Shown here: positions 10,235 through 41,443 of the stretch, one piece after another
Numbering within the stretch: the first letter of the stretch is position 1
Layout: the number at the start of each line of letters is the position of its first letter
DNA from: Acidobacteriota bacterium
Lineage (GTDB): Bacteria; Acidobacteriota; Thermoanaerobaculia; UBA5066; Gp7-AA6
DNA: 64,000 nucleotides
Direction: 5' to 3'
NCBI GenBank assembly: GCA_046725935.1
Contig: JBKOZO010000073.1
Span: forward strand, 9,341-73,340
Notes under the pieces: generated by a model
What the model was told of the DNA's origin: nothing
Seen by the model: only the letters and a program-made list of their open reading frames with translations
Database searches by the model: none
Position numbers and translations under genes: made by a program

Positions 10235-10250
10235 TGGCACCGGGATTGCT
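10235..10250 (+). promoter_or_regulatory. Candidate sigma-54 promoter (-24/-12) for the 10295 lipoprotein gene
   Basis: TGGCACcgggaTTGCT matches the consensus perfectly with GG-N10-GC spacing. The predicted TSS is about 10261, giving a 34-nt leader with SD AAGGAGG. Confidence 0.7.
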
Positions 10251-10294
10251 CTCCTCTCCATGTCTGGCACTCCGGCCAGACCCAAGGAGGTTGC

Positions 10295-10795
10295 ATGTCC
10301 TCGATTCCTCTTCGTGTCTCTCGCGGTGTTCTCGTTTCACTCTTTCTCGCCTCGCTCGGCCTCGTCTCCGCCTGCAACGACAACAACGACGTCACCGGGA
10401 CAGGCGGCGCTCTGGTGCGCCTCAACGTCGACGCCCCCGATTCGGCGGCCTCGGGTCAGCCGTTCAACGTGAATGTCTCGGCCCAGAACATCGGCGTCAC
10501 CAACGTGGGCAACGGCGTCGTCACCGTGACGCTCCCATCTCCCCTGACCGTCGTCAGCGTCAACGCCGAGTCGGGCACCTCGGCCACGTTTTCCAACTCG
10601 GGGACCGGTGCGACGGTCAACTGGCAGCTCAACACGCTCGATTCCAACTCTTCTTCGAACCTGACGATCCAGGCCACGGGGACGCTGGCGCCCGGAGCGC
10701 CGAATCTTCCGGTCGCCATCCAGGCTCAACTGACGGCGGATGGAATCAATCCGGGCCAGTCCGTGGCCACCGACACGGTGACCCTGATGCAGTGA
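10295..10795 (+). CDS. Small lipoprotein with DUF11/CARDB-like Ig-fold repeat
   Basis: It has SD AAGGAGG and a signal plus lipobox LGLVSAC. The body is a beta-rich N/S/T/V sequence (FNVNVSAQNIGVTNVGNGVVTVTLP) resembling DUF11-type domains. Confidence 0.6.
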   Translation: MSSIPLRVSRGVLVSLFLASLGLVSACNDNNDVTGTGGALVRLNVDAPDSAASGQPFNVNVSAQNIGVTNVGNGVVTVTLPSPLTVVSVNAESGTSATFSNSGTGATVNWQLNTLDSNSSSNLTIQATGTLAPGAPNLPVAIQAQLTADGINPGQSVATDTVTLMQ

Positions 10796-10867
10796 CCCGG
10801 AGAGCTCTCTTGCGTCGGGAAGTGAGACCGGGTGGGCCCTCCGCGGAGAGCCCGCCCGGTCGCGCTG

Positions 10868-11176
10868 TCAGCGCTCGAGTTGGAAGGAAAGCTTGGCCGG
10901 ACGGGAAACGGGAGCGTTCTGCGGACTCGCGGCCTTGGTCTGGCTCGCGCCCGTGGGGTTCGTGCGCACCGCCCCGGAACGGCCGCCCGGAACCTGATGC
11001 GTCTGCCGCGAGGCGTCGGGCCAGCACGGCTCGAGGCCCGCGGGATACGCCGACGGACAGAAGAACGGACTGATCCGACACATAGCCGAGACGTCGGCGC
11101 ATGGCCGCACGACGTCGGATCGCGGGGGCGCCTGCGCGGCGACCGCCGCCGACAAGACCACGTGAGCCAGAAGCAT
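10868..11176 (-). CDS. Small secreted protein with 4 Cys, unknown function
   Basis: The internal ATG has SD GGAGG 8 nt upstream. It has signal peptide MLLAHVVLSAAVAAQA, and a sigma-54-like motif lies upstream. Confidence 0.45.
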   Translation of the reverse strand: MLLAHVVLSAAVAAQAPPRSDVVRPCADVSAMCRISPFFCPSAYPAGLEPCWPDASRQTHQVPGGRSGAVRTNPTGASQTKAASPQNAPVSRPAKLSFQLER

Positions 11177-11228
11177 GACCAGCACCTCCAGGTTTGGACG
11201 CTCCCGAGTGAGCGCACCGCCTGGAAAC

Positions 11229-11244
11229 TGCAAGGTCGATACCA
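11229..11244 (-). promoter_or_regulatory. Candidate sigma-54 promoter for the 11176 small secreted protein gene
   Basis: The coding strand reads TGGTATcgaccTTGCA, with a perfect -12 element, conserved GG in the -24 element and exact spacing. The leader would be about 42 nt. Confidence 0.5.
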
Positions 11245-11266
11245 GAAACGCCTCCCGGGCGGCGTC

Positions 11267-11584
11267 CTAGTCGGCGCTTTTCTTGCTTTTCTTCTTGTCC
11301 GCTTTTTCGGACGCCGCGGGTTTCTCGGTCTTTTCCGACTTTTCCGACTTCTCTCCCGCATCCGAAGAGGATTCCGAGGCCTTTCGGCCGCCGCTCTCCT
11401 GCTTCGCGCGCGCGTAGTCGGTGACGTACCACCCGCTTCCCTTGAACTGGATCGCGGGTGCGGAGAACGCCTTCTTCAGCCGGCCGCCGCAATGCGGACA
11501 GACGCGCAGAGGCGCTTCGCCGACGCGCTGAATGACCTCGGTCTTCTTCCCGCACTTCCCGCAGACGTATTCGTAGATCGGCAT
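11267..11584 (-). CDS. FmdB-family zinc-ribbon putative regulatory protein
   Basis: It starts MPIYEYVCGKCG...CPHCGG, the CxxC...CxxC FmdB signature. The C-terminal tail is K/E/S-rich. Confidence 0.85.
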   Translation of the reverse strand: MPIYEYVCGKCGKKTEVIQRVGEAPLRVCPHCGGRLKKAFSAPAIQFKGSGWYVTDYARAKQESGGRKASESSSDAGEKSEKSEKTEKPAASEKADKKKSKKSAD

Positions 11585-11630
11585 GGAGTGCCGGAATCGT
11601 AACCGATTCGCCGAGGATCCGCCGCGTAGA

Positions 11631-13715: not shown

Positions 13716-13732
13716 CTGGCACGACCGCCGCA
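13716..13732 (+). promoter_or_regulatory. Weak candidate sigma-54 promoter upstream of the KAS operon
   Basis: TGGCACgaccgCCGCAt has correct spacing. However, the predicted TSS (about 13742) is only 3 nt from the GTG start, so it is doubtful. Confidence 0.3.
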
Positions 13733-13744: not shown

Positions 13745-14995
13745 GTGGCGGAGCGGCGCGTCGCGATCACCGGGATTGGCTGCCTCTCTCCCAACGGCAA
13801 CGGGCGCGAGGAGTTTGCGCGCGCTCTCCGGGCGGGCCGAAGCGGAGTGGGACGGATCTCCCTCTTCGATCCTGAAGGCCTTCCCGCCACGATCGCGGGC
13901 GAGGTCAAGGACTTCGATCCGTCGGCGCACCTCGAACCCAAGGACCTCCGGCACGTGTCGCGCGCCGTGCCTCTCGCGATCGCCGCGACGGATGAAGCGC
14001 TCCGCGACGCCGGCATCGAGGCCGACGCGCTCACGCTCGAGGAGCGACGGCGCCTCGGAGTCCTGCTCGGAACCGGAGGCGGACCGATCGAGTTCTCCGA
14101 ACGGATGTACCACCTTTACTACACGAACCAGGTCAAGAAGGCGTCGGTCTACGCGATCGCCTCGGGCACGATCGGGACGCTGTCCTCGGAGATATCGATG
14201 CGCTACGGGCTGCGCGGCCCCTCGCAGGTCGTCTCGACGGGATGCGCGTCGTCGACGGACGCCCTGGGCCACGCCTTTCGCGCGATCAAGTTCGGAGCCG
14301 AGGAGATCGTACTCGCCGGCGGCGTCGACGCGACGGTCGTGCGCGGCATCATGGAAGGCTTCGTCATGATGCGGGTGGTCTCCACCGCGTACGAACGGGA
14401 ACCGCCGCGCGCCTGCCGGCCTTTCGACTCGGGAAGAGACGGTTTCGTTCTGGGCGAGGGCGCGTGGATGTTCGTGCTCGAGGAGAGGGAGCGCGCGCGG
14501 GCCCGCGGCGCCCGCGTGTACGCCGAGATCCGCGGCTACGGAGCGACGTGCGATGCGCATCACCGCGTGCGCCTCGACGAGTCGGGCGAGGAGCCCGCCC
14601 GGGCGATGGAGCTGGCCCTCGCGGAAGCCGGTCTGCCCGCCGAGGCCATCGACTACGTCGCGTACCACGGCACGGGCACGGAGCTGAACGACCGCGTCGA
14701 GACGCGCGCGGCGCGCCTCGCCTTCGGGGCCGCCGCGGTGCGGATCCCCGGCTCGTCGATCAAGTCGATGATCGGACATCCGCAGGGCGCGTGCGGCGCT
14801 GCGGGAGTCGCGGCCACCGTGCTCGGCATGCGCGACGGATTTCTGCCGCCGACGATCAATCTGGAGACGGCGGATCCCGAATGCGACCTCGACTACGTCC
14901 CCAACACGGCCCGGCCGGCGTCGTTCGCCAACGCCCTCTGTAACTGCATCGGGTTCGGCTCGAAGAACAGCGCGCTCGTCGTCAGCCGCGCGTGA
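13745..14995 (+). CDS. Beta-ketoacyl-ACP synthase family protein (FabF/KAS II-like)
   Basis: 416 aa starting RRVAITGIG. The C-H-H triad context is present (STGCASS, YHGTGT, GHPQGA). Confidence 0.88.
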   Translation: MAERRVAITGIGCLSPNGNGREEFARALRAGRSGVGRISLFDPEGLPATIAGEVKDFDPSAHLEPKDLRHVSRAVPLAIAATDEALRDAGIEADALTLEERRRLGVLLGTGGGPIEFSERMYHLYYTNQVKKASVYAIASGTIGTLSSEISMRYGLRGPSQVVSTGCASSTDALGHAFRAIKFGAEEIVLAGGVDATVVRGIMEGFVMMRVVSTAYEREPPRACRPFDSGRDGFVLGEGAWMFVLEERERARARGARVYAEIRGYGATCDAHHRVRLDESGEEPARAMELALAEAGLPAEAIDYVAYHGTGTELNDRVETRAARLAFGAAAVRIPGSSIKSMIGHPQGACGAAGVAATVLGMRDGFLPPTINLETADPECDLDYVPNTARPASFANALCNCIGFGSKNSALVVSRA

Positions 14996-15005
14996 GCGTC
15001 GCCCG

Positions 15006-15704
15006 GTGAGCCTCTTCGTGCCTCCGCGCCGTCCCTCCCGCGAGCGCCTCGACGATCCGAGCCTCCCCGCGGACGAGATGCGCCGGAATCTCGAGGACCT
15101 GGGCGAGATCGGCCGCCGTTGGGGAGCACAGCGGGACCTGGCGGACTACGTCGACGGCCGCGCGCGCGCACTCGGCCTGCGCCGCGTCTCGGTCCTCGAC
15201 GTCGGCGCGGGCTCGGGCGAGGGAACGTCCGGCCTTCGCCGCACGTTGACTCGCGGGGGACTCGCCGCGGAGGTGCTCGCGCTGGACCTGCGGTGGCGCC
15301 ACCTCGCCGCGGGACGGCTCATCGCCGCCCAGCCGGCGCGGGCCGTTTCCGCGGACGGGTTCCGGATGCCGTTTCGCGACGGTGCCTTCGACTTCGCGGT
15401 GTCGACGCTCTTTTTCCACCACTTCTCCCCCGACGAGAATCGGCGCCTCCTCGCGGAGCTCCGGCGGGTCGCGCGCCACGGCTTCGCCATGCTCGACGTG
15501 CGCCGCCACCGGATCCCGGAAATCTTCCTCGCCCTGGTCGGGCCCGCGATCTTTCGAACCCGCATCACGACGGAGGACAGCGTAGCGTCCGTGCGGCAGG
15601 CATACACGCCCTCCGAGGCGCTGGCCGTGGCGCGCGAGGTGGACCCGCGGAGCACCCTGCGCCGGATCTTTCCCTTCCGAATTCTGGTGGCGGGCGGGAC
15701 ATGA
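15006..15704 (+). CDS. Class I SAM-dependent methyltransferase
   Basis: Motif I is VLDVGAGSGEG. The post-I acidic residue and FDFAVS motif are present. Confidence 0.8.
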   Translation: MSLFVPPRRPSRERLDDPSLPADEMRRNLEDLGEIGRRWGAQRDLADYVDGRARALGLRRVSVLDVGAGSGEGTSGLRRTLTRGGLAAEVLALDLRWRHLAAGRLIAAQPARAVSADGFRMPFRDGAFDFAVSTLFFHHFSPDENRRLLAELRRVARHGFAMLDVRRHRIPEIFLALVGPAIFRTRITTEDSVASVRQAYTPSEALAVAREVDPRSTLRRIFPFRILVAGGT

Positions 15705-16822
15705 CAAGACCCTTCGACGCGATCGTCGTGGGCGCAGGCCCGGCCGGCTCCGCCGCCGCTGCGATGCTGGCCGCGCGCGGACGCCCCGTCCTGGTCTTCG
15801 AGAAGGAGCGCTTTCCCCGGCGAAAGGTCTGCGGCGAATTCCTCTCGGCGGACGCGCTGGGCTCTCTCGAGAGGCTCGGCGTCCGAGAAGACGTCGAAGC
15901 GCGCGCCGAACGCATCCGGGAGGGAGAGCTCTATCTCCGCAACGGACGCCCGATCGCGTTCCACTTGCCCGCGCGTGCGCTGGGGATCTCCCGCTTCGTC
16001 CTCGATGACTTGCTGGCGCGGCGCGCGGCGGAGCTCGGTGCCGAATTCCGGTTCGGCGCCCGTGTGCGCGACGTCGCGCCGGAAGGAGCCGGCTGGCGCG
16101 TCCGCTTTTCCGAAGGATTGCAAGACGCCGAGGTGGCGGCGCGCGCCGTGGTGGGAGCCTGGGGCCGCTGGGACGCGCTGGACCGGGCGCTCAACCGTGG
16201 GTTCGACGGGCGCCACGGACGATTTCTCGCATGGAGCCGCGAGTACGCGCCCTCGGCGGAGATGGCGGGCCGCGTTCGCGTCTATCTCTTCCGCGGCGGG
16301 TACTGCGGCCTCTCGCGGGTCGAGGGCGGCCGGGTGAATCTCGCCGGCGTGGTGGCCGAGTCCCAGCACCGGCGCTCAACCGGCGGTTGGGAGGCGGTCC
16401 TCGATCACGCGCGCCGTTCGAACACGTCCCTCGACCGGGACCTCTCGACTCTGACTCCGAGCTCCGATTTTCTCGGCGCCGGGCCCGTCTACTTCACGAG
16501 CAAGCCTCCTGCGGAGGGCGGAATCCTGATGGCTGGAGACGCGGCGGGCGTGCTCGATCCGTTTTCCGGAGAGGGCCAGGAATGCGCCCTGGCGTCCGGA
16601 ATCCTCGCCGCCCGGACGCTCGAGCGAGCCTTCAGCGGGGAGATCGCCCTCGAACGCGCCGCTGCGGTCTACGCGGCGGCGTGGCGCGCCCGGTTCCGGA
16701 GGCGCTTCGGCTGGAGCGCCGCGTTCCGGAGCCTGATGCTGCACCCGCGCCTGGCCGCCGCCGCGGCGCCGCTGGTCGGCGAGAGGTTGACGAGGCTGGC
16801 GCTGTCGAGACTGAGGGCCTAG
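15701..16822 (+). CDS. FAD-dependent oxidoreductase (geranylgeranyl-reductase/flavin monooxygenase-like)
   Basis: The ATG overlaps the upstream stop. It has the dinucleotide fold DAIVVGAGPAGSAAA and a later GDAAG motif. Confidence 0.82.
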   Translation: MTRPFDAIVVGAGPAGSAAAAMLAARGRPVLVFEKERFPRRKVCGEFLSADALGSLERLGVREDVEARAERIREGELYLRNGRPIAFHLPARALGISRFVLDDLLARRAAELGAEFRFGARVRDVAPEGAGWRVRFSEGLQDAEVAARAVVGAWGRWDALDRALNRGFDGRHGRFLAWSREYAPSAEMAGRVRVYLFRGGYCGLSRVEGGRVNLAGVVAESQHRRSTGGWEAVLDHARRSNTSLDRDLSTLTPSSDFLGAGPVYFTSKPPAEGGILMAGDAAGVLDPFSGEGQECALASGILAARTLERAFSGEIALERAAAVYAAAWRARFRRRFGWSAAFRSLMLHPRLAAAAAPLVGERLTRLALSRLRA

Positions 16823-19792: not shown

Positions 19793-20407
19793 CTACTTCG
19801 AAAACGTCTCCAGCAGCGTCTGCATGTCCTGGGCGTGCTCCTCTTCCTTGGCCAGGATCTCCTCCATCAGTCTGCGGGAGGTCGGGTCGTCGTTGCCCAG
19901 GAATCGGATGATCTCCGAATAGGACTCGATGGCCACGCGCTCGGCGACGAGGTCCTCGCGGATCATGTCCACCAGCGTCTTGCCCTCGACGTACTCGGAG
20001 TGACTGCGGGTCGCCAGCCCCTCGGGGTTCAGGTTGGGCTCGCCGTTGAGCTGCGTGATCCGGCCGGCGATGCGGTCCGCGTGGTCCTGCTCCTCGGTCG
20101 CGTGCTCGAGGAACTCCTGCGCCACGGCCTGCGCGTTGATTCCCGAGGCCATGAAGTAATGGCGCTTGTAGCGCAGCACGCACACGATCTCGGTGGCGAG
20201 AGCCTCGTTGAGCACACGGACGACGGTCTCGCGGTCGGCGCGGTAGTTCTCGGTCACGGCGCCTTCCTGGATGTGCCGCCGCGCGCGCTCGCGCAGCTCC
20301 CGGATGTCCGAGAGGAAGGGCATGTCGGTGGGAGCGCTCTCGGCGGGACGGGGTTTCATCGACGGGTTCTCGACGGGACGAGGCTTCATCGAGGCTTTCT
20401 TGCTCAT
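19793..20407 (-). CDS. Ferritin-like / bacterioferritin-family protein
   Basis: It is a four-helix-bundle di-iron type with EALATEI, EHATEEQDHADR and LAKEEEHAQD motifs. The N-terminal ~40 aa are Pro-rich, so the true start may be further downstream. Confidence 0.8.
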   Translation of the reverse strand: MSKKASMKPRPVENPSMKPRPAESAPTDMPFLSDIRELRERARRHIQEGAVTENYRADRETVVRVLNEALATEIVCVLRYKRHYFMASGINAQAVAQEFLEHATEEQDHADRIAGRITQLNGEPNLNPEGLATRSHSEYVEGKTLVDMIREDLVAERVAIESYSEIIRFLGNDDPTSRRLMEEILAKEEEHAQDMQTLLETFSK

Positions 20408-20656: not shown

Positions 20657-20672
20657 CGGCGTCATTCTTGCA
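20657..20672 (+). promoter_or_regulatory. Candidate sigma-54 promoter for the metallophosphoesterase-GDPD operon
   Basis: CGGCGTCattcTTGCA has exact spacing, and its spacer attc-TTG mirrors the divergent motif. The leader would be only about 6 nt. Confidence 0.4.
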
Positions 20673-23825: not shown

Positions 23826-23841
23826 TGCACGCCGCGTGCCA
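23826..23841 (-). promoter_or_regulatory. Candidate sigma-54 promoter for the ferritin-like/PNPOx operon
   Basis: The coding strand reads TGGCACGcggcGTGCA with exact spacing. The predicted TSS is about 23815, 19 nt before the ATG. Confidence 0.65.
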
Positions 23842-24404: not shown

Positions 24405-24420
24405 AGCAAAACAGGTGCCA
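24405..24420 (-). promoter_or_regulatory. Candidate sigma-54 promoter pointing at the PLD/cls pseudogene
   Basis: The coding strand reads TGGCACctgttTTGCT, a perfect consensus match. Confidence 0.6.
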
Positions 24421-24592: not shown

Positions 24593-24608
24593 TGGCACCC
24601 GCGTTGCA
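24593..24608 (+). promoter_or_regulatory. Candidate sigma-54 promoter for the low-affinity iron permease-family gene
   Basis: TGGCACccgcgTTGCA is a perfect match. The predicted TSS is about 24619, just before SD GGAGG and the ATG at 24632. Confidence 0.7.
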
Positions 24609-25604: not shown

Positions 25605-25620
25605 TGCAAGAGGAGTGCCC
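25605..25620 (-). promoter_or_regulatory. Candidate sigma-54 promoter for the DUF1328 gene
   Basis: The coding strand reads GGGCACtcctcTTGCA with exact spacing. It lies back-to-back with the SOD motif in a 108-bp spacer. Confidence 0.6.
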
Positions 25621-25654: not shown

Positions 25655-25670
25655 CGGCACGCTTTTCGCT
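25655..25670 (+). promoter_or_regulatory. Candidate sigma-54 promoter for the superoxide dismutase gene
   Basis: CGGCACGctttTCGCT has exact spacing. The predicted TSS is about 25681, at SD GAGGGAGG. Confidence 0.6.
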
Positions 25671-26568: not shown

Positions 26569-26617
26569 GGTTCAAACTCCTCTTGTGAATGCGGCTTCGC
26601 GCGCCGAAGCGTCTAAG

Positions 26618-26633
26618 TGCAAGATCCGTTCCC
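26618..26633 (-). promoter_or_regulatory. Candidate sigma-54 promoter for the Thr-rich lipoprotein gene
   Basis: The coding strand reads GGGAACGgatcTTGCA with exact spacing. The 39-nt leader contains the hairpin gcttcg-gcgc-cgaagc. Confidence 0.55.
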
Positions 26634-31063: not shown

Positions 31064-31111
31064 GGCAGTCTCCTCGTCGTGATGTGGGCGTGAATGCCCA
31101 CAGATCTTCGT

Positions 31112-31127
31112 TGCACGAAGCGTGCCG
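31112..31127 (-). promoter_or_regulatory. Candidate sigma-54 promoter for the acidic IDP-otsB-otsA-GH15 unit
   Basis: The coding strand reads CGGCACGcttcGTGCA with exact spacing. The 38-nt leader contains the hairpin gtgggc-attcac-gcccac. Confidence 0.65.
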
Positions 31128-31137: not shown

Positions 31138-31153
31138 TGGCAGGACGATTGCT
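31138..31153 (+). promoter_or_regulatory. Candidate sigma-54 promoter for the metallothionein-like/ku unit
   Basis: TGGCAGgacgaTTGCT has exact spacing. The predicted TSS is about 31164, at SD GGGGAGG. Confidence 0.6.
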
Positions 31154-31335: not shown

Positions 31336-32157
31336 ATGCGGCCGATCTGGAACGGACACATCACCTTCGGGCTGATCTCGATACCGGTTTCCCTTTACTC
31401 GGCCGTCGAAGCCTCGGAGCGGGTGTCCTTCCGGCTCCTGCACCGGAAGGACCACGCGCCGATCGTCTACAAGAAGTTCTGCAGCGAGGAGGACGTCGAA
31501 GTCCCCAACGACGAGATCGTGCGCGGCTACGAGGTCGACAAGGGCGAATATGCGCTGGCGGAAAAGGAAGACATCGAGAAAGCCGAGGAGGAAGCCGGCG
31601 GCGCCGACGACATGGAGGTCCTGGAGTTCGTCGAGTACTCGGCTTTGAACCCGTTGCTGTTCGACAATCCGTACTACGTCGGAGCCCGCAAGGGCGGCGA
31701 GCACGCCTACGGCGTCCTGAGGGAGGCGCTCAACGACGCGCACCGCGTGGCGATCGTGCGCATCCGGATGCGCAAGAAGCCCCAGCTCGCCACGCTGCTG
31801 CCGGGGCCCAAGGTGCTCTCGCTGGAGACGCTGCGGCCGTTCGGCGAGCTGCGCAATCCGACCGGAGTCGAGGCCCCCGCGAACGTGCGCAAGCCCGCCG
31901 AGGTCAAGATGGCGCGCATGTTGATCGACCAGATGTCCGAGGAGGGCTGGGATCCGGCCGAGCACCCCAACACGTACAAGAAGGCGCTCCGCAAGCTCCT
32001 TTCCTCGCGCCGTAAGTTCGCGCTCAAGGGCAAGGGCCGCGCGGCGGCGGAAGTTCCCGCCAACGTCGTGGACCTGATGGAGTCGCTGAAGAAGAGCCTG
32101 GGCGCCGCACGCACTCGGCCGAAGCGTGCCGCTTCGCGGCGCGCCGGAGCCGCCTAA
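31336..32157 (+). CDS. ku: Non-homologous end-joining protein Ku
   Basis: It starts MRPIWNGHITFGLISIPVSLYSA and has a K/R-rich C-terminal tail. Its stop overlaps the convergent gene's stop. Confidence 0.93.
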   Translation: MRPIWNGHITFGLISIPVSLYSAVEASERVSFRLLHRKDHAPIVYKKFCSEEDVEVPNDEIVRGYEVDKGEYALAEKEDIEKAEEEAGGADDMEVLEFVEYSALNPLLFDNPYYVGARKGGEHAYGVLREALNDAHRVAIVRIRMRKKPQLATLLPGPKVLSLETLRPFGELRNPTGVEAPANVRKPAEVKMARMLIDQMSEEGWDPAEHPNTYKKALRKLLSSRRKFALKGKGRAAAEVPANVVDLMESLKKSLGAARTRPKRAASRRAGAA

Positions 32158-34322: not shown

Positions 34323-35440
34323 GACGTGACGCCTCCGGCCTGTCGCGAACGGGCTCCGGCTTCGCGGGACTCGGCCACGCGGCGATAGAGATTCAGGTAG
34401 TCCAGCGCCATCCTCCGGGACGTGAATCGCTGCTCGAATCTCTGGCGGCAAACGCTCCGGTCGATTCGATCGAGATTCTCGACGGCGCCTACCGCGTCGC
34501 GGATGGTGTCGACCACCCAGCCGTTGACGCCGTCTTCCACGATCTCCTCGACAGACCCCGCCCGAAACGCGAGAACGGGCGTGCCGCACGACATCGCCTC
34601 GATCATGACGAGTCCGAAGGGCTCGGGCCAATCGATCGGGAACAGCAGGGCCGCGGCCCCGCCGAGAAAGTCGGGCTTCTCGTGCTCCGAGATCTCCCCC
34701 AGGAATTCGACGTGCGGTTGCAGCAGGAGTCTCCGGATCTCCCGGTCGAAATAGTCCATGTCGGCGCGGTCCACCTTGGCCGCGATCCGGAGCGGCCACC
34801 CGGCACGCCGCGCGATCTCGATCGCGCGATCCACGCGCTTCTCCGGAGAGATCCGGCCGAGGAAGGCGAGGTAGCCGCCGTCCCCCGGCGCGAACGGCAA
34901 CAGATCCCGCGGCAGCCCGTGGTGGACGGTCCCCTGCCAGTTGGCGTGGGGCAGGGGCGCGCGCTGCGAATCCGAGATGGACGCGAGCGCCATCTCCTCG
35001 TACTCGCGGTAGACGGGCACCAGATCCGGCAGGTCCAGCCGCCCGTGGAGCGTCGTCAGCGTGGGCGTACCGGTGCGCCGCGCGAACGGGTAGTGGAGAT
35101 AGTCGGTATGGAGATGGATGACGTCGAAGTTGGGCGCGCGCTCGAAGACGTGCTCGAGGTGGACGATGTGACGCGCGAGCGGATCCGCGCAGGATCCGTC
35201 CAGACGCAGCGAGCGCGGCGATCCCGGAACGAGCCGAGCGCGCGTGCGCGAGTCGCCGCTGGCGAAGAGCGTCACGTCGTGGCCCATCGCCACGAGCTCC
35301 TCGGTCAGGTACGAGACCACGCGCTCGGTACCTCCGTAGAGCTTGGGCGGAACGCTCTCGTAGAGCGGCGCCACCTGGGCGATCCGCAAGCCTCCGCGCA
35401 CGCGGCGAGGCCAGTCGAACCCGGTATCGGGATTCCCCAC
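34319..35440 (-). CDS. Glycosyltransferase family 4
   Basis: It has RIAQVAPLYESVPPKLYGGTERVV and EPFGLVMIEAMSCGTPV (the EX7E region). The start is uncertain: the predicted sigma-54 TSS at about 35442 favours GTG 35401 or TTG 35389. Confidence 0.85.
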   Translation of the reverse strand: MGNPDTGFDWPRRVRGGLRIAQVAPLYESVPPKLYGGTERVVSYLTEELVAMGHDVTLFASGDSRTRARLVPGSPRSLRLDGSCADPLARHIVHLEHVFERAPNFDVIHLHTDYLHYPFARRTGTPTLTTLHGRLDLPDLVPVYREYEEMALASISDSQRAPLPHANWQGTVHHGLPRDLLPFAPGDGGYLAFLGRISPEKRVDRAIEIARRAGWPLRIAAKVDRADMDYFDREIRRLLLQPHVEFLGEISEHEKPDFLGGAAALLFPIDWPEPFGLVMIEAMSCGTPVLAFRAGSVEEIVEDGVNGWVVDTIRDAVGAVENLDRIDRSVCRQRFEQRFTSRRMALDYLNLYRRVAESREAGARSRQAGGVTS

Positions 35441-35452: not shown

Positions 35453-35468
35453 AGCAGGATCCGTGCCG
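35453..35468 (-). promoter_or_regulatory. Candidate sigma-54 promoter for the GT4-GDE unit
   Basis: The coding strand reads CGGCACGgatcCTGCT with exact spacing. Confidence 0.6.
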
Positions 35469-35506: not shown

Positions 35507-35899
35507 TTATTCCCGCCCGCGCCGCTTTTGCTCCGTTTTGGGATCCCTCGATGCGCGCCGGCGCCTCCAGCGCCGCGAGGGCGGCCGCCGAAACTCGCGC
35601 AGCACCAGGACGATCTCTCCCAGCGCCACCCGGCGGCTGTCGCCGCCGAGCGCGTCCGCCGACGCGCTGAGGGTCGACAAACCCCGGACCGCGAGATGCG
35701 CCTCCGCGATCCGGGTCGGACCGCGAGCGAGGCGCAGGCGGACGAAGAACTCGGGCCCTTCTCCGAGAACGACCTCGCGCCGGCTCCGAAAGAGAACGGG
35801 AAGACCGGTACGCGACGCCCACCACTGCGCGTCCGCTTCGGGCTCGGAGGTGTCGAGTACGAGCCCGTGAAATCCCAGAAGCTCTCGGGGAGCGCTCAT
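35507..35899 (-). CDS. Hypothetical protein, possibly a glyoxalase/VOC-like fold
   Basis: Its ATG overlaps the HAD stop. The N-terminal LLGFHGLVLDTSEPEADAQWWASRTGLPVL resembles a VOC beta-alpha-beta unit. The C-terminal tail is Arg-rich and may be read-through. Confidence 0.35.
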   Translation of the reverse strand: MSAPRELLGFHGLVLDTSEPEADAQWWASRTGLPVLFRSRREVVLGEGPEFFVRLRLARGPTRIAEAHLAVRGLSTLSASADALGGDSRRVALGEIVLVLREFRRPPSRRWRRRRASRDPKTEQKRRGRE

Positions 35900-36615
35900 C
35901 GAAAGAGATCCCGGCCGCGCCGCCAGAGATCCGCGAGATCGTCGAACCTGCCGTCCGCGCGGGAGAGGAGGCGGTCCGGAAAACCCCCGGAAGAGACGGC
36001 GAGGCATGGAACACCGATCTGGTGCGCCGCGGCGATGTCGTAGGGCGTGTCGCCGATCGCGACCGGGCGGCGCTTGCCGAGGCGAAACCGCGCGATGGAG
36101 ATCGAGAAGATGTCGTCGAACGGCTTGGCGCTCGCGACGTCGTCCGCCGACGTGAACCCGTCGATCGAACGCGACAGCCCCAGGCGCCGCAGGGTCTTCT
36201 CGACGACGCGCCGGTCGGCCGAGGTCGCGATGACGACGGTCAGACCACTCCGGCGCATCGCGCGCACCGCGGCCGCGGCTCCGGGAAAGGGCCGCATCGC
36301 CCGCCGACCCGAATTGAGGAACAGCTCGACCTGGAGAGATCCGAGGGCCGAGCCGAGAAAGTGCCGTTCCGTGGGCCCCGCAAACTCGCGGAGAAGCTCC
36401 TGGCCTCCTTTGCCGACCTCACGCCGGATTCGTGCCGGCGAAACGTGATGGCCGAAGCGCCGCAGGGCCTTCGACCAGGCTCGGGCGTGCGCGTCGTTGG
36501 AGTCGATCAGCGTTCCGTCCAGATCGAGGAGGACCGCCCCGAAGCCCCGCCCACGCGCTCGCGACGAAGAGAAAGGACGGCGCCGCCGTAACGGAGCCGT
36601 CCCCGCCGAAACCAC
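35896..36615 (-). CDS. HAD-superfamily hydrolase (phosphatase, subfamily IA-like)
   Basis: Motifs VLLDLDGTLIDS and IGDTPYDIAAA are present. The GTG start abuts the stop of the lmo0937-family gene. Confidence 0.82.
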   Translation of the reverse strand: MVSAGTAPLRRRRPFSSSRARGRGFGAVLLDLDGTLIDSNDAHARAWSKALRRFGHHVSPARIRREVGKGGQELLREFAGPTERHFLGSALGSLQVELFLNSGRRAMRPFPGAAAAVRAMRRSGLTVVIATSADRRVVEKTLRRLGLSRSIDGFTSADDVASAKPFDDIFSISIARFRLGKRRPVAIGDTPYDIAAAHQIGVPCLAVSSGGFPDRLLSRADGRFDDLADLWRRGRDLFR

Positions 36616-36765
36616 TTATACCGTTCGACGCCCCTGGATCAGGTTGATGATCAGGATGACGACCGCGATCACGAGCAGGATGTGAATGAAGCCCGAGAGC
36701 GTGTATCCGGAAACCAGCCCGAGGAGCCAGAGGATCAGGAGGATGACGAAGATGGTCCACAGCAT
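36616..36765 (-). CDS. lmo0937-family 49-aa membrane protein
   Basis: It is absent from the ORF track (under 60 aa). The translation is MLWTIFVILLILWLLGLVSGYTLSGFIHILLVIAVVILIINLIQGRRTV, the typical family signature. SD AAGGAAG is present. Confidence 0.8.
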   Translation of the reverse strand: MLWTIFVILLILWLLGLVSGYTLSGFIHILLVIAVVILIINLIQGRRTV

Positions 36766-36816: not shown

Positions 36817-36832
36817 AGCGATTTTCGTGCCA
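36817..36832 (-). promoter_or_regulatory. Candidate sigma-54 promoter for the lmo0937-HAD unit
   Basis: The coding strand reads TGGCACGaaaaTCGCT with exact spacing. The leader is 41 nt. Confidence 0.65.
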
Positions 36833-36869: not shown

Positions 36870-38117
<1,248 letters not shown>

Positions 38118-38204
38118 CCCGGGGATCTCCGTTGAGGAACCTTCGGCCTTCATTCTCGGGATCGTCTATTTAACACGATGCACCCGGTTTTGGCCGGGGG
38201 GTTT

Positions 38205-38447
38205 TCAGCCGGCGCTCAAACCGCTTCCCAGCAACATTTCCCGGCCCCGTTCGAACAGCGAAAACGCCTTATCGAGCTCGCGGCGGGCGACTTCGAGCGG
38301 CTCGGCGGGGTCCGCCCCCTTCTTCGCCAGCCGGGAGGCCCGCTCGAGATGCAGGGCGACGGCGGACAGAGGTGTTGCGACGTCGTGAAAGAAACGGCGC
38401 AGATCGGCGGACGCGGCCGGCGAGCCCGCCTGAGAGTCGCTCGTCAT
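38205..38447 (-). CDS. 80-aa stand-alone DHp (HisKA-like) helical-hairpin protein with no ATPase domain
   Basis: It has SD AAGGAG, an H-box LRRFFHDVATPLSAV and a second helix. The gene ends 88 nt upstream of the activator gene. Confidence 0.55.
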   Translation of the reverse strand: MTSDSQAGSPAASADLRRFFHDVATPLSAVALHLERASRLAKKGADPAEPLEVARRELDKAFSLFERGREMLLGSGLSAG

Positions 38448-38577: not shown

Positions 38578-38739
38578 TCAGACGGCGAGATTGTCGACCG
38601 CGGCCAGGCCCAGCGCCAGAAACAGTACGAAGAGAGCCGCCAGGATCGCCGCGGCGATCTTGCCCGCGGCCAGCGGAACGGCCACGAGCCCGAGGATCGC
38701 GAGAACCAGACACGCGAGAGCGATCTTCAAGAGGAACAT
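38578..38739 (-). CDS. 53-aa two-TM small membrane protein (DUF1328-like)
   Basis: It is absent from the ORF track. SD GGAGGAG is present. The translation is MFLLKIALACLVLAILGLVAVPLAAGKIAAAILAALFVLFLALGLAAVDNLAV, with the same layout as the 25395 DUF1328 gene. Confidence 0.55.
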   Translation of the reverse strand: MFLLKIALACLVLAILGLVAVPLAAGKIAAAILAALFVLFLALGLAAVDNLAV

Positions 38740-38753
38740 CACTCCTCCCCGAC

Positions 38754-38787
38754 AAAAAAAGGTCCCGCCGGCTTGACCAGCGGGACC
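38754..38787 (-). terminator. Rho-independent terminator after the tandem-repeat protein gene
   Basis: The coding strand reads GGTCCCGC-loop-GCGGGACC followed by TTTTTTT. Confidence 0.75.
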
Positions 38788-38829
38788 CAGAAACGATGCG
38801 CTAGTGAAGCTCCTTGTCCTGGAACTGTC

Positions 38830-39465
38830 CTACAGCGCCGGTTCGACGAGCGTGGCCTTGAAGCCGTGCTCCCCCTTCAGGTAGGTGACCTTGACGCGCT
38901 GTCCGACCGCGAGGTTGGCGGCCTTCATGGACACGTTCTCATCCAGATCGAACGTGTAGTCTTTGTCGCCCGGGCCCGTCACCTTGATCTTCTTTCCGGG
39001 CTCGTACTCTTTGACCGTGCCGACGACCACTTCGGACGTCGCCTTGGTGTTGGGTCCCGGTCCCGAGTGCTTCACGGTCGACTCGGAGTGAACGCGCGGA
39101 GCGCTCGCCGAAGCCTGCGCGCCCTTGGGAGCCTCCGAGAGAACGGTGACACGCTCGCGGCCGTCGTTGTCCTTGTAGTACTTGATCTTGGCCATCTGGC
39201 CGACGACGACGGAGCCTTCGAGCTTCGCGTTCTCGTCGAGATCGAAGCTGTAGTCCTTGCCGCCCGGGCCTTCGACCTTGATCTTCTTTCCGGGCTCGTA
39301 CTCCTTGACCGTACCGACGACCGTTTCGGTCTTCGTCTTCACGTCGGGGCCCGGCCCGGTCTTCTTGACCGTCGTCTCCGTGTGCTGCTTTTCCTGGCCG
39401 AGCGCGAATGCACCGCCGCCTACGGCCACGCAAAGAGCGATTGCCATACCGGTAATGCGTTTCAT
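38830..39465 (-). CDS. Secreted protein made of two ~90-aa tandem repeats, unknown family
   Basis: It has a signal peptide. The core VVGTVKEYEPGKKIKV(E/T)GPG(G/D)KDY(S/T)FDLDEN occurs twice. The DNA repeat is visible at about 38935-39030 versus 39228-39325. Confidence 0.7.
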   Translation of the reverse strand: MKRITGMAIALCVAVGGGAFALGQEKQHTETTVKKTGPGPDVKTKTETVVGTVKEYEPGKKIKVEGPGGKDYSFDLDENAKLEGSVVVGQMAKIKYYKDNDGRERVTVLSEAPKGAQASASAPRVHSESTVKHSGPGPNTKATSEVVVGTVKEYEPGKKIKVTGPGDKDYTFDLDENVSMKAANLAVGQRVKVTYLKGEHGFKATLVEPAL

Positions 39466-39510: not shown

Positions 39511-39526
39511 TTCAAGAAGCGTGCCG
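39511..39526 (-). promoter_or_regulatory. Candidate sigma-54 promoter for the tandem-repeat protein gene
   Basis: The coding strand reads CGGCACGcttcTTGAA, the same GA variant of -12 as at 20628. The 35-nt leader has SD AGGAGGA. Confidence 0.5.
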
Positions 39527-39546
39527 ACTCGATGAGAGCCAGCGGG

Positions 39547-39579
39547 AATAAAAAGCGCCGGCCCTGCTGGACCGGCGCC
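39547..39579 (-). terminator. Rho-independent terminator after the BON-domain gene
   Basis: The coding strand reads GCGCCGGTCC-agca-GGGCCGGCGC followed by TTTTTATT. Confidence 0.8.
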
Positions 39580-39600
39580 GGAGCGTCCGCGAAGTCGAAA

Positions 39601-40599
39601 CTAGATCGAGGACTTGCTCCGCGACCCGGAAGTCGAGGAGCTCGTCGAGCCCCTCGAGGACGAGCCCGAGATCGAACCCGACGTCGAGCTCTTCCCTTCC
39701 CGGCCGCCCTGCCGGTTCTCGATTCTCAGGCGGTTCTGGACCTGCTTGACGCCGGGGAGGTCCTCGGCGAGGTCCTCCGCGAGACGCTTGGACTCCCGAT
39801 CCGGAACCGTGCCCTCGAGCGTGACTTCACCCGAGAGGACGATGACCTCGATCTCCGACGCGTCGAGATCGCCATCACGAGAGAGCGCCTCGCTGACGTC
39901 CTCCTTGATGCGGTCGTCGGAGCGCTGATAGCCCTTGGGCCCCTTGCCCGTGAAACGGCCCCGCGTGAAGCCCTGCCCCGGGCGTCCGGAGGAGCGGCCC
40001 GATTCGAACGACCGGTCGTAGCCGTCGAAACGGTCGGAAGGACGCCACTGCTCCTCGCCGGAGCCGACGCCCGACGAACGGCCGAATCCGGTGGAACGCT
40101 CCGACTCCGACCCGTGCGAAGAAACCCGCCGGCCGGAGCCGTAGGACCCGCTCGAACCGTAGGAAGGCGGGCCTCCCGAGTACTCCGCCCGACCCGACCC
40201 GTAGGAGCGGGATTCCCGGGGGTCGCCTTCCCACGTACCGCGACCCTCGCCGTAACCCTGGCTCGACCCATACCGTCCGTACTGCTGGTTCATTCCATAG
40301 CGGCCGTACGACGGGGACTCCTGGCCGCGGCCCTCGCCGCCCTCGTAAGGCTCGCCGTCGGCCTGCGAGTAGCCGCGTCCCTGTCCGCGCGAGCCCTCGT
40401 ACGACGATGAGCCCTGGCTGAAGCGGCCCTGACCCTGCTCCCCCCAGCGCTCCTGCTCGAAGGGCTCGCGGTACTCGGCGTCGCGCCGTCCCTCGTAACC
40501 CCGGCCGGAGCGTTCGCGATTTCCGAATCTGCCCTGCTCTTGTTCAAACTCGCCGCGATTCCACCTCGGTTCTCCTCCTCGAAAACGATCGGAACTCAT
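39601..40599 (-). CDS. BON-domain protein with long Gly/Ser/Tyr/Arg/Glu-rich disordered N-terminus and Ser-rich tail
   Basis: It has SD AAGGAG before MSSDRF. About 230 aa are low-complexity (GRYG, SYGS and GRG repeats). A BON domain follows (IKEDVSEAL...GEVTLEGTVP...LPGVKQVQNRLRI). Confidence 0.8.
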   Translation of the reverse strand: MSSDRFRGGEPRWNRGEFEQEQGRFGNRERSGRGYEGRRDAEYREPFEQERWGEQGQGRFSQGSSSYEGSRGQGRGYSQADGEPYEGGEGRGQESPSYGRYGMNQQYGRYGSSQGYGEGRGTWEGDPRESRSYGSGRAEYSGGPPSYGSSGSYGSGRRVSSHGSESERSTGFGRSSGVGSGEEQWRPSDRFDGYDRSFESGRSSGRPGQGFTRGRFTGKGPKGYQRSDDRIKEDVSEALSRDGDLDASEIEVIVLSGEVTLEGTVPDRESKRLAEDLAEDLPGVKQVQNRLRIENRQGGREGKSSTSGSISGSSSRGSTSSSTSGSRSKSSI

Positions 40600-40652
40600 A
40601 GGGACTCCTTGAAAACGAGAATTGCGAGACACCATGTCTCGCGAGTCGAAAT

Positions 40653-40668
40653 TGCAATCGGCGTGCCG
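40653..40668 (-). promoter_or_regulatory. Candidate sigma-54 promoter for the BON-domain gene
   Basis: The coding strand reads CGGCACGccgaTTGCA, a perfect core match. The predicted TSS at about 40642 coincides with the first base of an 8-bp hairpin (40624-40642, gcgagaca-cca-tgtctcgc). Confidence 0.7.
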
Positions 40669-40675
40669 CCGGAGC

Positions 40676-41386
40676 TCAGTGCGTCGGCGAAGCGAAGCCG
40701 AGCATCCGGGCGATCTCGTCGCGCCGCGTCATGAGCGACGCGCGTCCGTCCGCGCCGTCGACTTCCCTGCGGTACGACTCGTCGGTGTCGTAGCGATGGA
40801 GCTGATAGAGGCACTCGAGGCCCTTGTCGATGATTCCCTGCTCGAGAGCCTCGGTGGAGAGGCGGGAGGCGCCGTTGATCGCGGCCACGACGCGGCGTGA
40901 TTCGCGCTCGGAGGCGACGAACGCCACCGCCTGCCCGAAACTGTTGCGAAGGATGTTGCCCCGCTTCTCGTCCACGGTCCAGGGCTCGCTCGGACGAGGC
41001 TGCCGCGCGGGGTCCGGATTGGCCTCTTGGAGGATTCGTTCGATGAGGTCCTTGAGCTTTTCGGCGTTGACCGGTTTTGCGAGAAAAGAGTTCGGTGCGA
41101 TGTTCAGGCCCTCGTTCACCATTCCCGAGAGCACGATCACGGGGATCATCAGCAGCAGGGGATCGGACTCGCGAAGCGTCAAAAACTCGGTGCCGCTCAG
41201 GATCGGCATGTCGAGGTCGAGCAGAATCAGGTCGGGCCGCTTGCCGTTTCGGATCTTCTGGAGCGCATCGGCCCCGTTGACGGCGCCGGTCGCCTCGTAC
41301 CCTTCCGACTCCAGGAGCTCGAGCAGGATCTTCAGCGAGCTCTCGTCGTTCTCGGCAACAAGAATCCGGGGTTTCGAGCGACTCAT
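40676..41386 (-). CDS. Orphan response regulator: receiver domain plus ~110-aa C-terminal domain of unknown type
   Basis: It starts MSRSKPRILVAENDE and has DLILLDLDMP and the LAKP lysine. I recognise no motif in the C-terminal half. Confidence 0.78.
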   Translation of the reverse strand: MSRSKPRILVAENDESSLKILLELLESEGYEATGAVNGADALQKIRNGKRPDLILLDLDMPILSGTEFLTLRESDPLLLMIPVIVLSGMVNEGLNIAPNSFLAKPVNAEKLKDLIERILQEANPDPARQPRPSEPWTVDEKRGNILRNSFGQAVAFVASERESRRVVAAINGASRLSTEALEQGIIDKGLECLYQLHRYDTDESYRREVDGADGRASLMTRRDEIARMLGFASPTH

Positions 41387-41427
41387 CAGACCCCCTTGGG
41401 CAAAAAGAACCCCTCGCGTAGGGCAAG

Positions 41428-41443
41428 AGCAAGATCTGTACCG
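41428..41443 (-). promoter_or_regulatory. Candidate sigma-54 promoter for the orphan response regulator gene
   Basis: The coding strand reads CGGTACAgatcTTGCT with exact spacing. The 31-nt leader has SD AAGGGGG. Confidence 0.5.

Follow-up and report, generated by a model that had tools for sequence, protein, structure and literature searches.

We describe an island of sigma-54-type (-24/-12) promoters and stress-protection genes in a 64,000-nt stretch of contig JBKOZO010000073.1 (hereafter the window; about 68% G+C) from an Acidobacteriota bacterium of the class Thermoanaerobaculia. The island encodes trehalose and glycoside enzymes, Dps/ferritin-like, DUF892-like, and GSP26-like proteins, superoxide dismutase (SOD), Ku, BON/OsmY-like, DUF1328/DUF5670, and hydrophilin-like proteins, and small lipoproteins. 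We propose, with a probability of roughly two in three, that about 15 to 17 sigma-54 promoters, each with a short protective operon, are opened through an enhancer-independent activator that would be fed by a phosphorelay. An earlier note on this DNA, made from its letters, had listed 18 such promoters and suggested a sigma-54-driven general stress or desiccation regulon; its individual claims are taken up below with the results that bear on them.

Intergenic -24/-12 motifs and the genes behind them

The gene map of the window was built from codon-position G+C and checked against Pfam and NCBIfam, and it left 9.5% of the sequence intergenic. Both strands were scanned with a 12-position log-odds matrix written from the published sigma-54 consensus (Barrios et al. 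1999) and not trained on the window; the cutoff was 11 bits, and the intergenic segments themselves, dinucleotide-shuffled 200 times, served as the control. Seventeen intergenic matches scored at least 11 bits, whereas the shuffles yielded 0.35 on average and never more than 3, and the 58 kb of coding DNA contained 4 such matches. The resulting densities of 2.79 per kb in intergenic DNA and 0.069 per kb in coding DNA correspond to an approximately 40-fold intergenic excess across the 64-kb window; a comparison of this kind had been proposed in the earlier note, whose view that a chance origin is unlikely is borne out. All 17 matches lie between positions 10,235 and 41,443, and no intergenic match of at least 11 bits was found elsewhere in the window. 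The pattern GGCAC-N6-TGC occurred 10 times in the window, versus 2.0 to 2.2 expected from dinucleotide shuffles. The loose pattern GG-N10-GC, with few other constraints, shows hardly any enrichment (101 occurrences against an expected 84), as an artifact of chance or composition in G+C-rich intergenic DNA would have it. That explanation is already refuted by the shuffles together with the conservation of the motif across genomes, amid divergent flanks, that is described below.

A start codon on the same strand follows each of the 17 sites at a distance of 12 to 119 nt, in most cases with a GGAGG-type ribosome-binding site in front of it. The earlier note was thus right that every site faces a start codon, although the range of 16 to 47 nt that it gave was too narrow. 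Where a site lies in a spacer between co-directional genes, its orientation is sense in 8 of 8 cases. The sites fit the extended consensus YTGGCACG-N4-TTGCW, with GG and GC doublets spaced exactly 10 nt apart: GG, the A at -22, and the G at -13 are present in all 17 and the C at -12 in 15, and the -11 column is A or T in 17 of 17 despite the 68% G+C of the genome. With the consensus matched at all informative positions, and with the motifs confined to spacers, oriented, and conserved before orthologues, the promoter class named in the earlier note holds, and we consider the observation real and the sites very probably sigma-54 promoters.

All 18 strings quoted in that note are present in the window on the strand given, the sole offset being 1 nt (13716, here 13717). 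Seventeen of them score at least 11 bits. The remaining one, CGGCGTCATTCTTGCA (CGGCGTC..., 20657..20672 on the plus strand), stays under 8 bits and is not supported as a sigma-54 site; it has no CA at -23/-22, where the other sites are invariant or almost so. Site TGGCACGACCGCCGCA at 13717 is doubtful; it lies 12 nt from a GTG start and is followed directly by a TAGAAT hexamer. Credible instances therefore number 16 or 17, not 18. Four further matches were discarded as promoters: that at 7136 lies inside a DUF192 gene, those at 55943 and 61993 are intragenic, and that at 29982 (13.2 bits) falls at the otsB/otsA junction, is too near the otsA start, and is missing in a 95%-identical relative (L001, below).

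Alternatively, the motif may serve a conventional transcription factor as its operator, or it may be a site at which sigma-54 is merely "parked," with transcription arising from unrecognized promoters of sigma-70-family or extracytoplasmic function (ECF) factors. Many nonproductive binding sites of sigma-54 have been described in Escherichia coli (PMC4591121). Two of the sites (23826 and 31112) are nearly palindromic, GCACG-N3-CGTGC, as an operator might be. A scan for sigma-70-type promoters between 30.5 and 42 kb returned 0 sites, and real promoters may escape such a scan as the acidobacterial housekeeping consensus is poorly known; the EcfG-like pattern GGAAC-N15-18-CGTT occurred twice versus 2.5 expected, both times within genes, and is not enriched. 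Set against this explanation, the motif is asymmetric, strictly oriented, and at a short fixed distance from start codons, it fits sigma-54 at every informative position including the A or T at -11, it occurs in spacers and not in genes, neither sigma-70-like nor EcfG-like sequences are enriched, and a sigma-54 activator is encoded within the island itself. We regard an operator or parking site as very improbable.

Conservation was examined with the island activator as the query and one genome per species. Close relatives came only from metagenome-assembled genomes (MAGs) of Acidobacteriota/Thermoanaerobaculia, namely, locus L001 at 95% identity and loci L002 to L008 at 64 to 78% in the scan table (66 to 80% by tblastn). 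The DUF5670 orthologue next to the activator has the motif in front of it in all eight loci, with spacers and flanks that vary. The matrix scan also placed sites before orthologues of the lipoprotein, metallothionein-like/Ku, otsB operon, BON, SOD, DUF1328, micro-lipoprotein, and response regulator genes. The promoters of the otsB operon and of the metallothionein-like/Ku genes are each kept in L001 to L003, as is the lipoprotein promoter with its unusual TTGAA (L001 8635, L002 3855, and L003 4626). The BON promoter CGGCACGCCGATTGCA and that of the Thr-rich micro-lipoprotein are kept in L001 and L003, and the GT4 promoter CGGCACGGATCCTGCT has an identical site in L001. A site at 14752 in L002, before the gene for a 68-aa Thr-rich lipoprotein without a blast match to the window gene, is the probable counterpart of the micro-lipoprotein promoter.

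Visual alignment of orthologous promoters showed that the GG and GC blocks persist, whereas the N4 spacer and its flanks have diverged. For example, the DUF1328 promoter reads CGGCACCCCTCTTGCA in L002 and GGGCACTCCTCTTGCA in the window, the SOD promoter reads CGGCACGGTTTTCGCT in L002 and CGGCACGCTTTTCGCT in the window, and the response regulator promoter reads CGGTATGGTTCTTGCT in L001 and CGGTACAGATCTTGCT in the window. Such retention of blocks amid divergent flanks is, as judged from these alignments, a phylogenetic footprint. In L002 and L003, the motif additionally precedes genes for PRC-barrel, DUF2231, GFO/IDH/MocA oxidoreductase, and BON lipoprotein products, which are further genes of the general-stress type. 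As a separate check on the left half of the island, metagenome contigs were scanned with the ferritin-like protein encoded at 23185-23796, which gave 73 orthologues with enough upstream sequence (63 to 73% identity). A sense site of at least 11 bits lies within 130 nt upstream in 44 of the 73 and an antisense site in 9, and the site sequences are many and different. Two metagenomic orthologues of the iron permease gene are also located behind a motif.

The products encoded downstream of the sites are those listed in the earlier note, as confirmed by Pfam and NCBIfam, and they make up the hallmark general-stress set, in line with that note. We consider it probable that the sites form one stress or desiccation regulon.

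An activator without a DNA-binding domain and a candidate phosphorelay

The gene singled out in the earlier note as encoding an activator (36870-38153 here) does encode a GAFTGA-containing receiver-AAA+ sigma-54 activator, with Pfam matches to Sigma54_activat (6.5e-73), Response_reg (2.2e-20), and AAA_lid_14. Its sequence includes the Walker A motif GQSGTGKE and ERGAFTGA, and its receiver has the acidic residues DD20-21 plus an Asp in LVVDVHLPDGDG. No Fis-type helix-turn-helix (HTH) domain was found, in that Pfam gave no HTH_8 match; instead, the chain stops 26 residues beyond the AAA lid in a tail rich in Lys and Arg. The alignments to NCBIfam models such as NtrC, AtoC, and ZraR break off near position 385 of roughly 460 and score below the model cutoffs, and the FlgR model, aligned to activator residues 13 to 391, is likewise below its cutoff. 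The HTH is also missing from 8 of 8 activator orthologues, which end in tails of 19 to 35 residues with a net charge of +6 to +10. The domain (LGIS-KTLYNRL) is kept in the window's PilR and in 71 of 72 homologues at about 50% identity. The sole exception among the 72 is L048, an Acidobacteriota MAG (approximately 10001-11206, 404 aa, 49% identity), which constitutes a second, unrelated HTH-less receiver-AAA+ lineage; four sites scoring 12 bits or more lie in the 21-kb neighborhood of its activator. Absence of the HTH places the island activator in the minority HTH-less subclass of the FlgR and CtcC types and not with canonical NtrC.

The promoters themselves leave little room for upstream elements. 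Noncoding DNA upstream of the -24 element is shorter than 90 nt in 13 of the 17 promoters and shorter than 40 nt in several, and three divergent spacers carry two outward-facing sites, which in two of these spacers are 10 to 35 nt apart. A search for an upstream 8-mer shared by the 17 promoters (1 mismatch, both strands, -200 to -3) gave nothing above shuffled or random regions, which is a weak negative. HTH loss, short upstream DNA, and the lack of a shared 8-mer would all fit an activator that needs no enhancer, and the conserved nature of the HTH loss suits a regulator with many targets. We therefore propose, from the absence of a sequence-specific DNA-binding domain, that the activator acts without enhancers, which could allow one regulator to fire many compact, back-to-back promoters together.

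A different possibility is that the promoters are genuine sigma-54 promoters that belong to several regulons, driven by conventional activators encoded elsewhere through enhancers in coding DNA, with the HTH-less activator serving DUF5670 only. Many sigma-54 activators are commonly encoded in Acidobacteria and comparable soil bacteria, enhancers may lie in coding DNA, the DUF5670 promoter is the only one that accompanies the activator in all eight genomes, and the other stress operons of L004, L005, L007, and L008 lie away from it. However, this arrangement would need many activators for at least 15 clustered promoters of one theme; no upstream element is conserved between -70 and -1 across orthologues, in addition to the negative 8-mer search; and promoter pairs 10 to 35 nt apart leave scant room for separate enhancers. 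The conserved loss of the HTH, which fits a many-target regulator, also argues against it. We consider separate regulons unlikely and lean, by a modest degree, toward the adjacent enhancer-independent activator as the protein that would run the sites.

Directly upstream of the activator gene in 8 of 8 loci is the gene for a small protein resembling a stand-alone HisKA/DHp helical hairpin. The family comprises 57 clusters, nearly all of 69 to 108 aa with one of 137 aa, and has an invariant His in LRRFFHDvATPLS; the corresponding His21 of the window copy aligns with the H-box His of PilS. Pfam HisKA matches 32 of 34 family members, at best with 7.5e-6, and the window copy at a sub-cutoff 0.018. 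A confident AlphaFold2 model of the protein is a two-helix hairpin (pLDDT of 87). Fold searching with Foldseek returned KinB, HK853, and other kinases amid generic hairpins, all with E values above 1, and a profile search against PDB sequences returned nothing significant; these matches lack significance because helical hairpins are generic. HATPase_c is absent from the 80-aa protein, and its homologues are all 69 to 137 aa long. Having no ATPase domain, the DHp-like protein cannot autophosphorylate and could act only as a relay or modulator, and it is a candidate histidine phosphotransferase that would feed the receiver of the activator.

Pairs of hybrid kinase genes are divergent from the DHp/activator pair in L002 (6864-9761 and 4834-6867) and L004 (6415-9429 and 4346-6979). 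One kinase has the order GAF-HisKA-HATPase-REC-REC, and the other contains receivers, HisKA, HATPase, and a further receiver. In L003, L005, L007, and L008, receiver domain matches were found at corresponding positions, which points to the same divergent arrangement in those loci. Since hybrid kinases need a histidine phosphotransferase, a DHp-only protein fits this arrangement. Moreover, a -24/-12 site at about 9350 (minus strand) in L004, L005, L007, and L008 faces the kinase genes, with a plausible start seen in L004 only, and its position suggests positive feedback. No hybrid kinase of this type is encoded in the window, and the kinases for the window system must be encoded elsewhere in the genome.

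In the mechanism that we propose, sigma-54 polymerase would wait in closed complexes on about 15 compact promoters until hybrid histidine kinases sense a stress signal. Phosphate would then reach the receiver of the activator (36870-38153) via the 80-aa DHp-only protein (38205-38447), and the phosphorylated activator would oligomerize and open all of the promoters by means of its GAFTGA loops and ATP hydrolysis. The basic tail may bind DNA nonspecifically, and the activator would work from solution or from the nucleoid.

Several points weigh against this mechanism. Nothing links every promoter to this activator, and the genome surely encodes other activators, whose enhancers can sit in upstream coding sequence. 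No rpoN gene is present in the 64-kb window; we infer its presence in the genome from the two GAFTGA activators that the window encodes, PilR and the island activator. Strong terminators stand behind the BON gene and the lipoprotein gene; the latter implies that transcription from the neighboring sigma-54 promoter at 39526 does not reach the activator gene, and autoregulation via that promoter is ruled out. A weak TGGCCGCATGCAAGCA stands directly before the DHp-like gene, with a site of 11.5 bits at the same place in L006, and autoregulation is unproven. In L004, L005, L007, and L008, few stress genes besides DUF5670 are located near the activator, and the island arrangement is thus lineage specific. 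The DUF11 lipoprotein gene, the 102-aa open reading frame (ORF), and the KAS operon are not obvious stress genes. Finally, the matches to HisKA that underlie the DHp assignment are sub-threshold, the fold search was nonsignificant, and the scan matrix was drawn up from a published consensus.

Features of the island and the rest of the window

The predicted promoters and their target genes are compiled in Table 1.

Table 1. Predicted promoters, genes, and terminators of the island, by window position (scores from the consensus matrix)
Feature	Position	Strand	Remarks
-24/-12 promoter TGGCACCGGGATTGCT	10235..10250	+	16.2 bits; sense, in 77-nt tandem spacer
DUF11 lipoprotein gene	10295-10795	+	Pfam DUF11; 44 nt after TGGCACCGGGATTGCT
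Hypothetical 102-aa ORF	10868-11176	-	Weak coding signal; no family match
-24/-12 promoter TGGTATCGACCTTGCA	11229..11244	-	14.5 bits; 52 nt before 102-aa ORF
Doubtful -24/-12 site TGGCACGACCGCCGCA	13717..13732	+	12.2 bits; CCGCA at -12
KAS, methyltransferase, and FAD-oxidoreductase genes	13745-16822	+	Behind TGGCACGACCGCCGCA; not stress genes
Dps/bacterioferritin-like ferritin gene	19793-20407	-	Pfam Ferritin 9.5e-26; NCBIfam bfr, Dps
67-aa acidic disordered protein gene	20404-20607	-	First behind CGGCACGATTCTTGAA; Pro/Glu-rich, no family assignment
-24/-12 promoter CGGCACGATTCTTGAA	20628..20643	-	11.7 bits; TTGAA at -12; 20 nt before disordered-protein gene
Metallophosphoesterase and GDPD genes	20689-21657; 21654-22631	+	Downstream of rejected CGGCGTCATTCTTGCA
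PNPOx-like/GSP26-like gene	22628-23188	-	Pyrid_ox_like 2e-34; second behind TGGCACGCGGCGTGCA
Ferritin-like (DUF892-like) gene	23185-23796	-	Behind TGGCACGCGGCGTGCA
-24/-12 promoter TGGCACGCGGCGTGCA	23826..23841	-	15.2 bits; 29 nt before ferritin-like gene
Truncated cardiolipin synthase (PLD) remnant, 144 aa	23851-24285	-	NCBIfam match over about 60 residues only
-24/-12 promoter TGGCACCTGTTTTGCT	24405..24420	-	16.2 bits; 119 nt before cardiolipin synthase remnant
-24/-12 promoter TGGCACCCGCGTTGCA	24593..24608	+	16.4 bits; 23 nt before iron permease gene
Low-affinity iron permease family gene	24632-25171	+	Pfam Iron_permease 1.8e-50
DUF1328 micro-protein gene	25395-25586	-	Pfam DUF1328
-24/-12 promoter GGGCACTCCTCTTGCA	25605..25620	-	13.1 bits; 18 nt before DUF1328 gene
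-24/-12 promoter CGGCACGCTTTTCGCT	25655..25670	+	11.4 bits; 24 nt before SOD gene
Fe/Mn superoxide dismutase gene	25695-26324	+	Pfam Sod_Fe_N, Sod_Fe_C
62-aa Thr-rich lipoprotein gene	26380-26568	-	Behind GGGAACGGATCTTGCA
-24/-12 promoter GGGAACGGATCTTGCA	26618..26633	-	11.5 bits; 49 nt before Thr-rich lipoprotein gene
GH15 gene	26667-28592	-	Pfam Glyco_hydro_15; last in otsBA operon
otsA	about 28589-29980	-	Pfam Glyco_transf_20
otsB	29965-30777	-	Pfam Trehalose_PPase
71-aa acidic disordered protein gene	30848-31063	-	First in otsBA operon; Pro/Glu-rich, no family assignment
-24/-12 promoter CGGCACGCTTCGTGCA	31112..31127	-	11.9 bits; 48 nt before 71-aa protein gene
-24/-12 promoter TGGCAGGACGATTGCT	31138..31153	+	15.8 bits; 23 nt before metallothionein-like gene
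Metallothionein-like gene	31177-31329	+	Weak Metallothio_Pro
Ku gene	31336-32157	+	Pfam Ku 3.1e-37
GDE/MGH1-like glycoside hydrolase gene	32154 to about 34330	-	Pfam; behind GT4
GT4 glycosyltransferase gene	34319-35440	-	Pfam
-24/-12 promoter CGGCACGGATCCTGCT	35453..35468	-	12.7 bits; before GT4 gene
HAD hydrolase gene	35896-36615	-	Second behind TGGCACGAAAATCGCT
DUF5670 (lmo0937-family) micro-protein gene	36616-36765	-	Behind TGGCACGAAAATCGCT
-24/-12 promoter TGGCACGAAAATCGCT	36817..36832	-	14.7 bits; 51 nt before DUF5670 gene
Sigma-54 activator (bacterial enhancer-binding protein family)	36870..38153	-	Receiver, AAA+ with GAFTGA, AAA lid, 28-aa Lys/Arg-rich tail
80-aa stand-alone HisKA/DHp-like helical hairpin	38205..38447	-	Invariant His21 (LRRFFHDVATPLS)
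54-aa hydrophobic membrane micro-protein	38578..38742	-	Good codon-position G+C; directly after lipoprotein terminator; no family match
Intrinsic terminator, 13-bp stem + T7	38760..38788	-	Ends lipoprotein transcript
211-aa two-repeat lipoprotein gene	38830-39465	-	Behind CGGCACGCTTCTTGAA
-24/-12 promoter CGGCACGCTTCTTGAA	39511..39526	-	11.7 bits; 45 nt before lipoprotein gene
Intrinsic terminator	39554..39579	-	After BON gene
BON-domain protein gene	39601-40599	-	Pfam BON 2.9e-19
-24/-12 promoter CGGCACGCCGATTGCA	40653..40668	-	15.6 bits; 53 nt before BON gene
Response regulator gene	40676-41386	-	Pfam Response_reg; about 110-aa C-terminal part without family match
-24/-12 promoter CGGTACAGATCTTGCT	41428..41443	-	13.6 bits; 41 nt before response regulator gene

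Within the operons, the genes for the 67-aa disordered protein and the ferritin (20404-20607 and 19793-20407) overlap by ATGA, and the promoters TGGCAGGACGATTGCT and CGGCACGCTTCGTGCA, the latter that of otsBA, are arranged back to back. The true start of the GT4 gene is probably downstream of the first GTG. The N terminus of the BON protein (listed at 39601-40260) is a disordered stretch of about 220 aa that is rich in Gly, Ser, Arg, and Tyr and has no family assignment; this region and the 67-aa and 71-aa acidic proteins look, by their sequences, like hydrophilin/LEA-type disordered desiccation proteins. Two promoters (39511-39526 and 20628-20643) have TTGAA in place of TTGCA/T at -12, a replacement that may tune activator dependence or basal activity. 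The predicted 5' leaders of otsBA (31083-31102), BON (40624-40642), and the micro-lipoprotein gene (approximately 26585-26605) each begin with a stable G+C-rich hairpin; the hairpins are kept in the close relative L001 and may stabilize the mRNA.

Some island genes appear to be in flux or are restricted in distribution. The cardiolipin synthase remnant, located behind a 16-bit site, keeps the first PLD motif region and the typical C-terminal end, and 23851-24285 looks like an internally deleted pseudogene. The HAD gene is missing in L001, where the GT4 promoter follows directly after DUF5670 (11530-11615), and this difference is a recent insertion or deletion within the island. The response regulator encoded at 40676-41386 was found only in the window and L001 and may provide feedback within the pathway. 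The 211-aa lipoprotein is made up of two repeats of about 90 aa (TVKKTGPGPDVKTKTETVVGTVKEYEPGKKIKV...DYSFDLDEN) with only faint matches to DUF5666 and DUF3221.

Outside the island, the left end of the window holds a type IV pilus block of pilB, pilT, pilC, pilS, and pilR (15-6952, plus strand), in which PilR is a canonical HTH-bearing sigma-54 activator; neither a pilin gene nor a pilin promoter was found in the window. The flanks of the island, comprising pil genes, BNR proteins, phosphatases, and an L,D-transpeptidase, contain no such sites. Three paralogous Sortilin/BNR-repeat proteins of about 610 to 630 aa are encoded at 7445-9277 (minus), 57759-59630 (plus), and 59729-61615 (plus) and are unrelated to the island. 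The long ORFs 41481-42944 (minus) and 40824-42923 (plus) were rejected; the real gene there encodes a FadL-like outer membrane barrel (41547-42923, plus).

Known stress systems and related modules in other phyla

General stress responses are textbook cases of control by the sigma-70-family alternative factors sigmaB, RpoS, and EcfG, whose regulons include otsBA, dps, sod, GSP26/YdaG-like PNPOx, OsmY/BON, YtjA/DUF1328, YciE/F-like ferritin-fold, Ku, PRC-barrel, and CsbD genes. The gene content of the sigmaB system of Firmicutes, the RpoS system of Gamma- and Betaproteobacteria, and the PhyR-NepR-EcfG system of Alphaproteobacteria is almost that of the island, and the alphaproteobacterial system further resembles our model in being activated by a histidine kinase phosphorelay. 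However, these systems deploy sigma-70-family factors via partner switching or proteolysis, whereas the island would rely on sigma-54 and an ATP-dependent activator. Because the island promoters are of the -24/-12 type, with no enrichment of sigma-70-like or EcfG-like sequences, the island is not a member of the sigmaB, RpoS, or EcfG systems, even though it would function in the manner of a general stress response.

Sigma-54 is known to serve individual stress systems, such as psp, rtc, zra, and norR, which the earlier note understated when it tied this factor to nitrogen, pili, and flagella; its statement that a broad general-stress set under sigma-54 is undescribed appears to hold. No account of a general-stress regulon run by sigma-54, whether in Acidobacteria or elsewhere, turned up in a literature search that was not exhaustive. 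Likewise, in the available text of a 2025 cross-phylum comparison of sigma-54 regulons, Acidobacteria, trehalose, superoxide, and general stress are unmentioned (PMC12316311).

Among sigma-54 activators that can be compared with that of the island, several share one or more of its properties. The FlgR protein of Helicobacter and Campylobacter is an enhancer-free receiver-AAA+ activator that serves several sigma-54 promoters from solution. Unlike the island activator, FlgS-FlgR controls flagellar genes only, belongs to a different orthologous group, and has no stress genes among its targets. In Myxococcus xanthus, Nla-type activators (e.g., Nla6) act in sporulation and control the formation of a desiccation-resistant state, trehalose synthesis genes among their targets; in contrast to the island activator, they bind DNA at defined enhancers and belong to a developmental program. 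CtcB-CtcC of Chlamydia resembles the island system in that it pairs a receiver-AAA+ activator lacking a DNA-binding domain with a multi-operon sigma-54 regulon. To our knowledge, neither a DHp-only relay protein nor a basic tail has been described for CtcC. The very small genome of Chlamydia encodes a single activator, and the genes controlled encode membrane and type III secretion effectors, in contrast to the trehalose, Dps, SOD, Ku, and BON functions of the island. Two reports link the CtcB-CtcC regulon to conversion into a resistant, nongrowing form (PMC7482065 and PMC12282069). In Borrelia, the Hk2-Rrp2-RpoN-RpoS pathway places sigma-54 and a response regulator activator atop a global adaptive and stress program (PMC2940757 and PMC4014564). 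There, however, sigma-54 is reported to act mainly via the rpoS promoter and RpoS runs the regulon, whereas in the island sigma-54 promoters stand directly before the stress operons.

The HTH-bearing homologues of the activator at about 50% identity are often found in comparable neighborhoods, and the closest of them include members from Burkholderiales (L075 and L032) that adjoin a second sigma-54 gene. In Ralstonia mojiangensis (L075, 1668-13569) and Pigmentiphaga (L032, 2903-13244), a complete second sigma-54 gene is located behind a strong -24/-12 site and adjoins one or two activators, and adjoining sites precede DUF1328, DUF883, and acidic small-protein genes. On the Ralstonia solanacearum megaplasmid CP047137.1 (L081, 2824-13248), the site before rpoN2 scores 18.8 bits, and further sites precede DUF1328, DUF883-like, another small-protein gene, and an activator gene. 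This rpoN2 locus resembles the island in having an activator beside -24/-12 sites that precede DUF1328 and small proteins but differs from it in having HTH-bearing activators, a dedicated sigma-54 paralogue, and a smaller gene set; no dedicated sigma-54 paralogue is present in the acidobacterial window. We know of no phenotype reported over a decade for rpoN2 of Ralstonia, which is genetically tractable, and no published stress link of the locus was found in the literature searched. According to Ray et al. 2015, rpoN2 expression is rpoN1 dependent and the role of rpoN2 "remains enigmatic" (PMC4371752). The putative autoregulatory site and the neighboring stress micro-proteins may explain this "enigmatic" gene. 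The motif is also located before genes for CsbD, hemerythrin, universal stress protein, DUF1328, and DUF2383 in Usitatibacter, a delta-proteobacterial MAG, Binatia, and Mycoavidus.

In sum, the promoter class and activator family of the island are standard, and what departs from the standard is the proposed physiological role, the HTH-less activator with its basic tail, the putative relay by a DHp-only protein, and the dense packing of the promoters in an island. We tentatively extend this to the possibility that soil Acidobacteriota, an abundant and poorly cultured phylum, place general stress and desiccation responses on sigma-54, by way of a phosphorelay, an activator with a histone-like tail, and dozens of preloaded complexes, and that related modules exist in other phyla, including one in Burkholderiales with an autoregulated sigma-54 paralogue. 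A single HTH-less, basic-tailed activator acting on many enhancer-less promoters is predicted, and the all-or-none logic of sigma-54, with prebound closed complexes, near-zero basal expression, and ATP gating by a phosphorylated activator, would suit costly desiccation programs. If the proposal is true, sigma-54 would represent a fourth, independently evolved bacterial solution to general stress, the Burkholderiales module would explain Ralstonia RpoN2, and the motif would be a simple predictor of stress and desiccation regulons in soil metagenomes.

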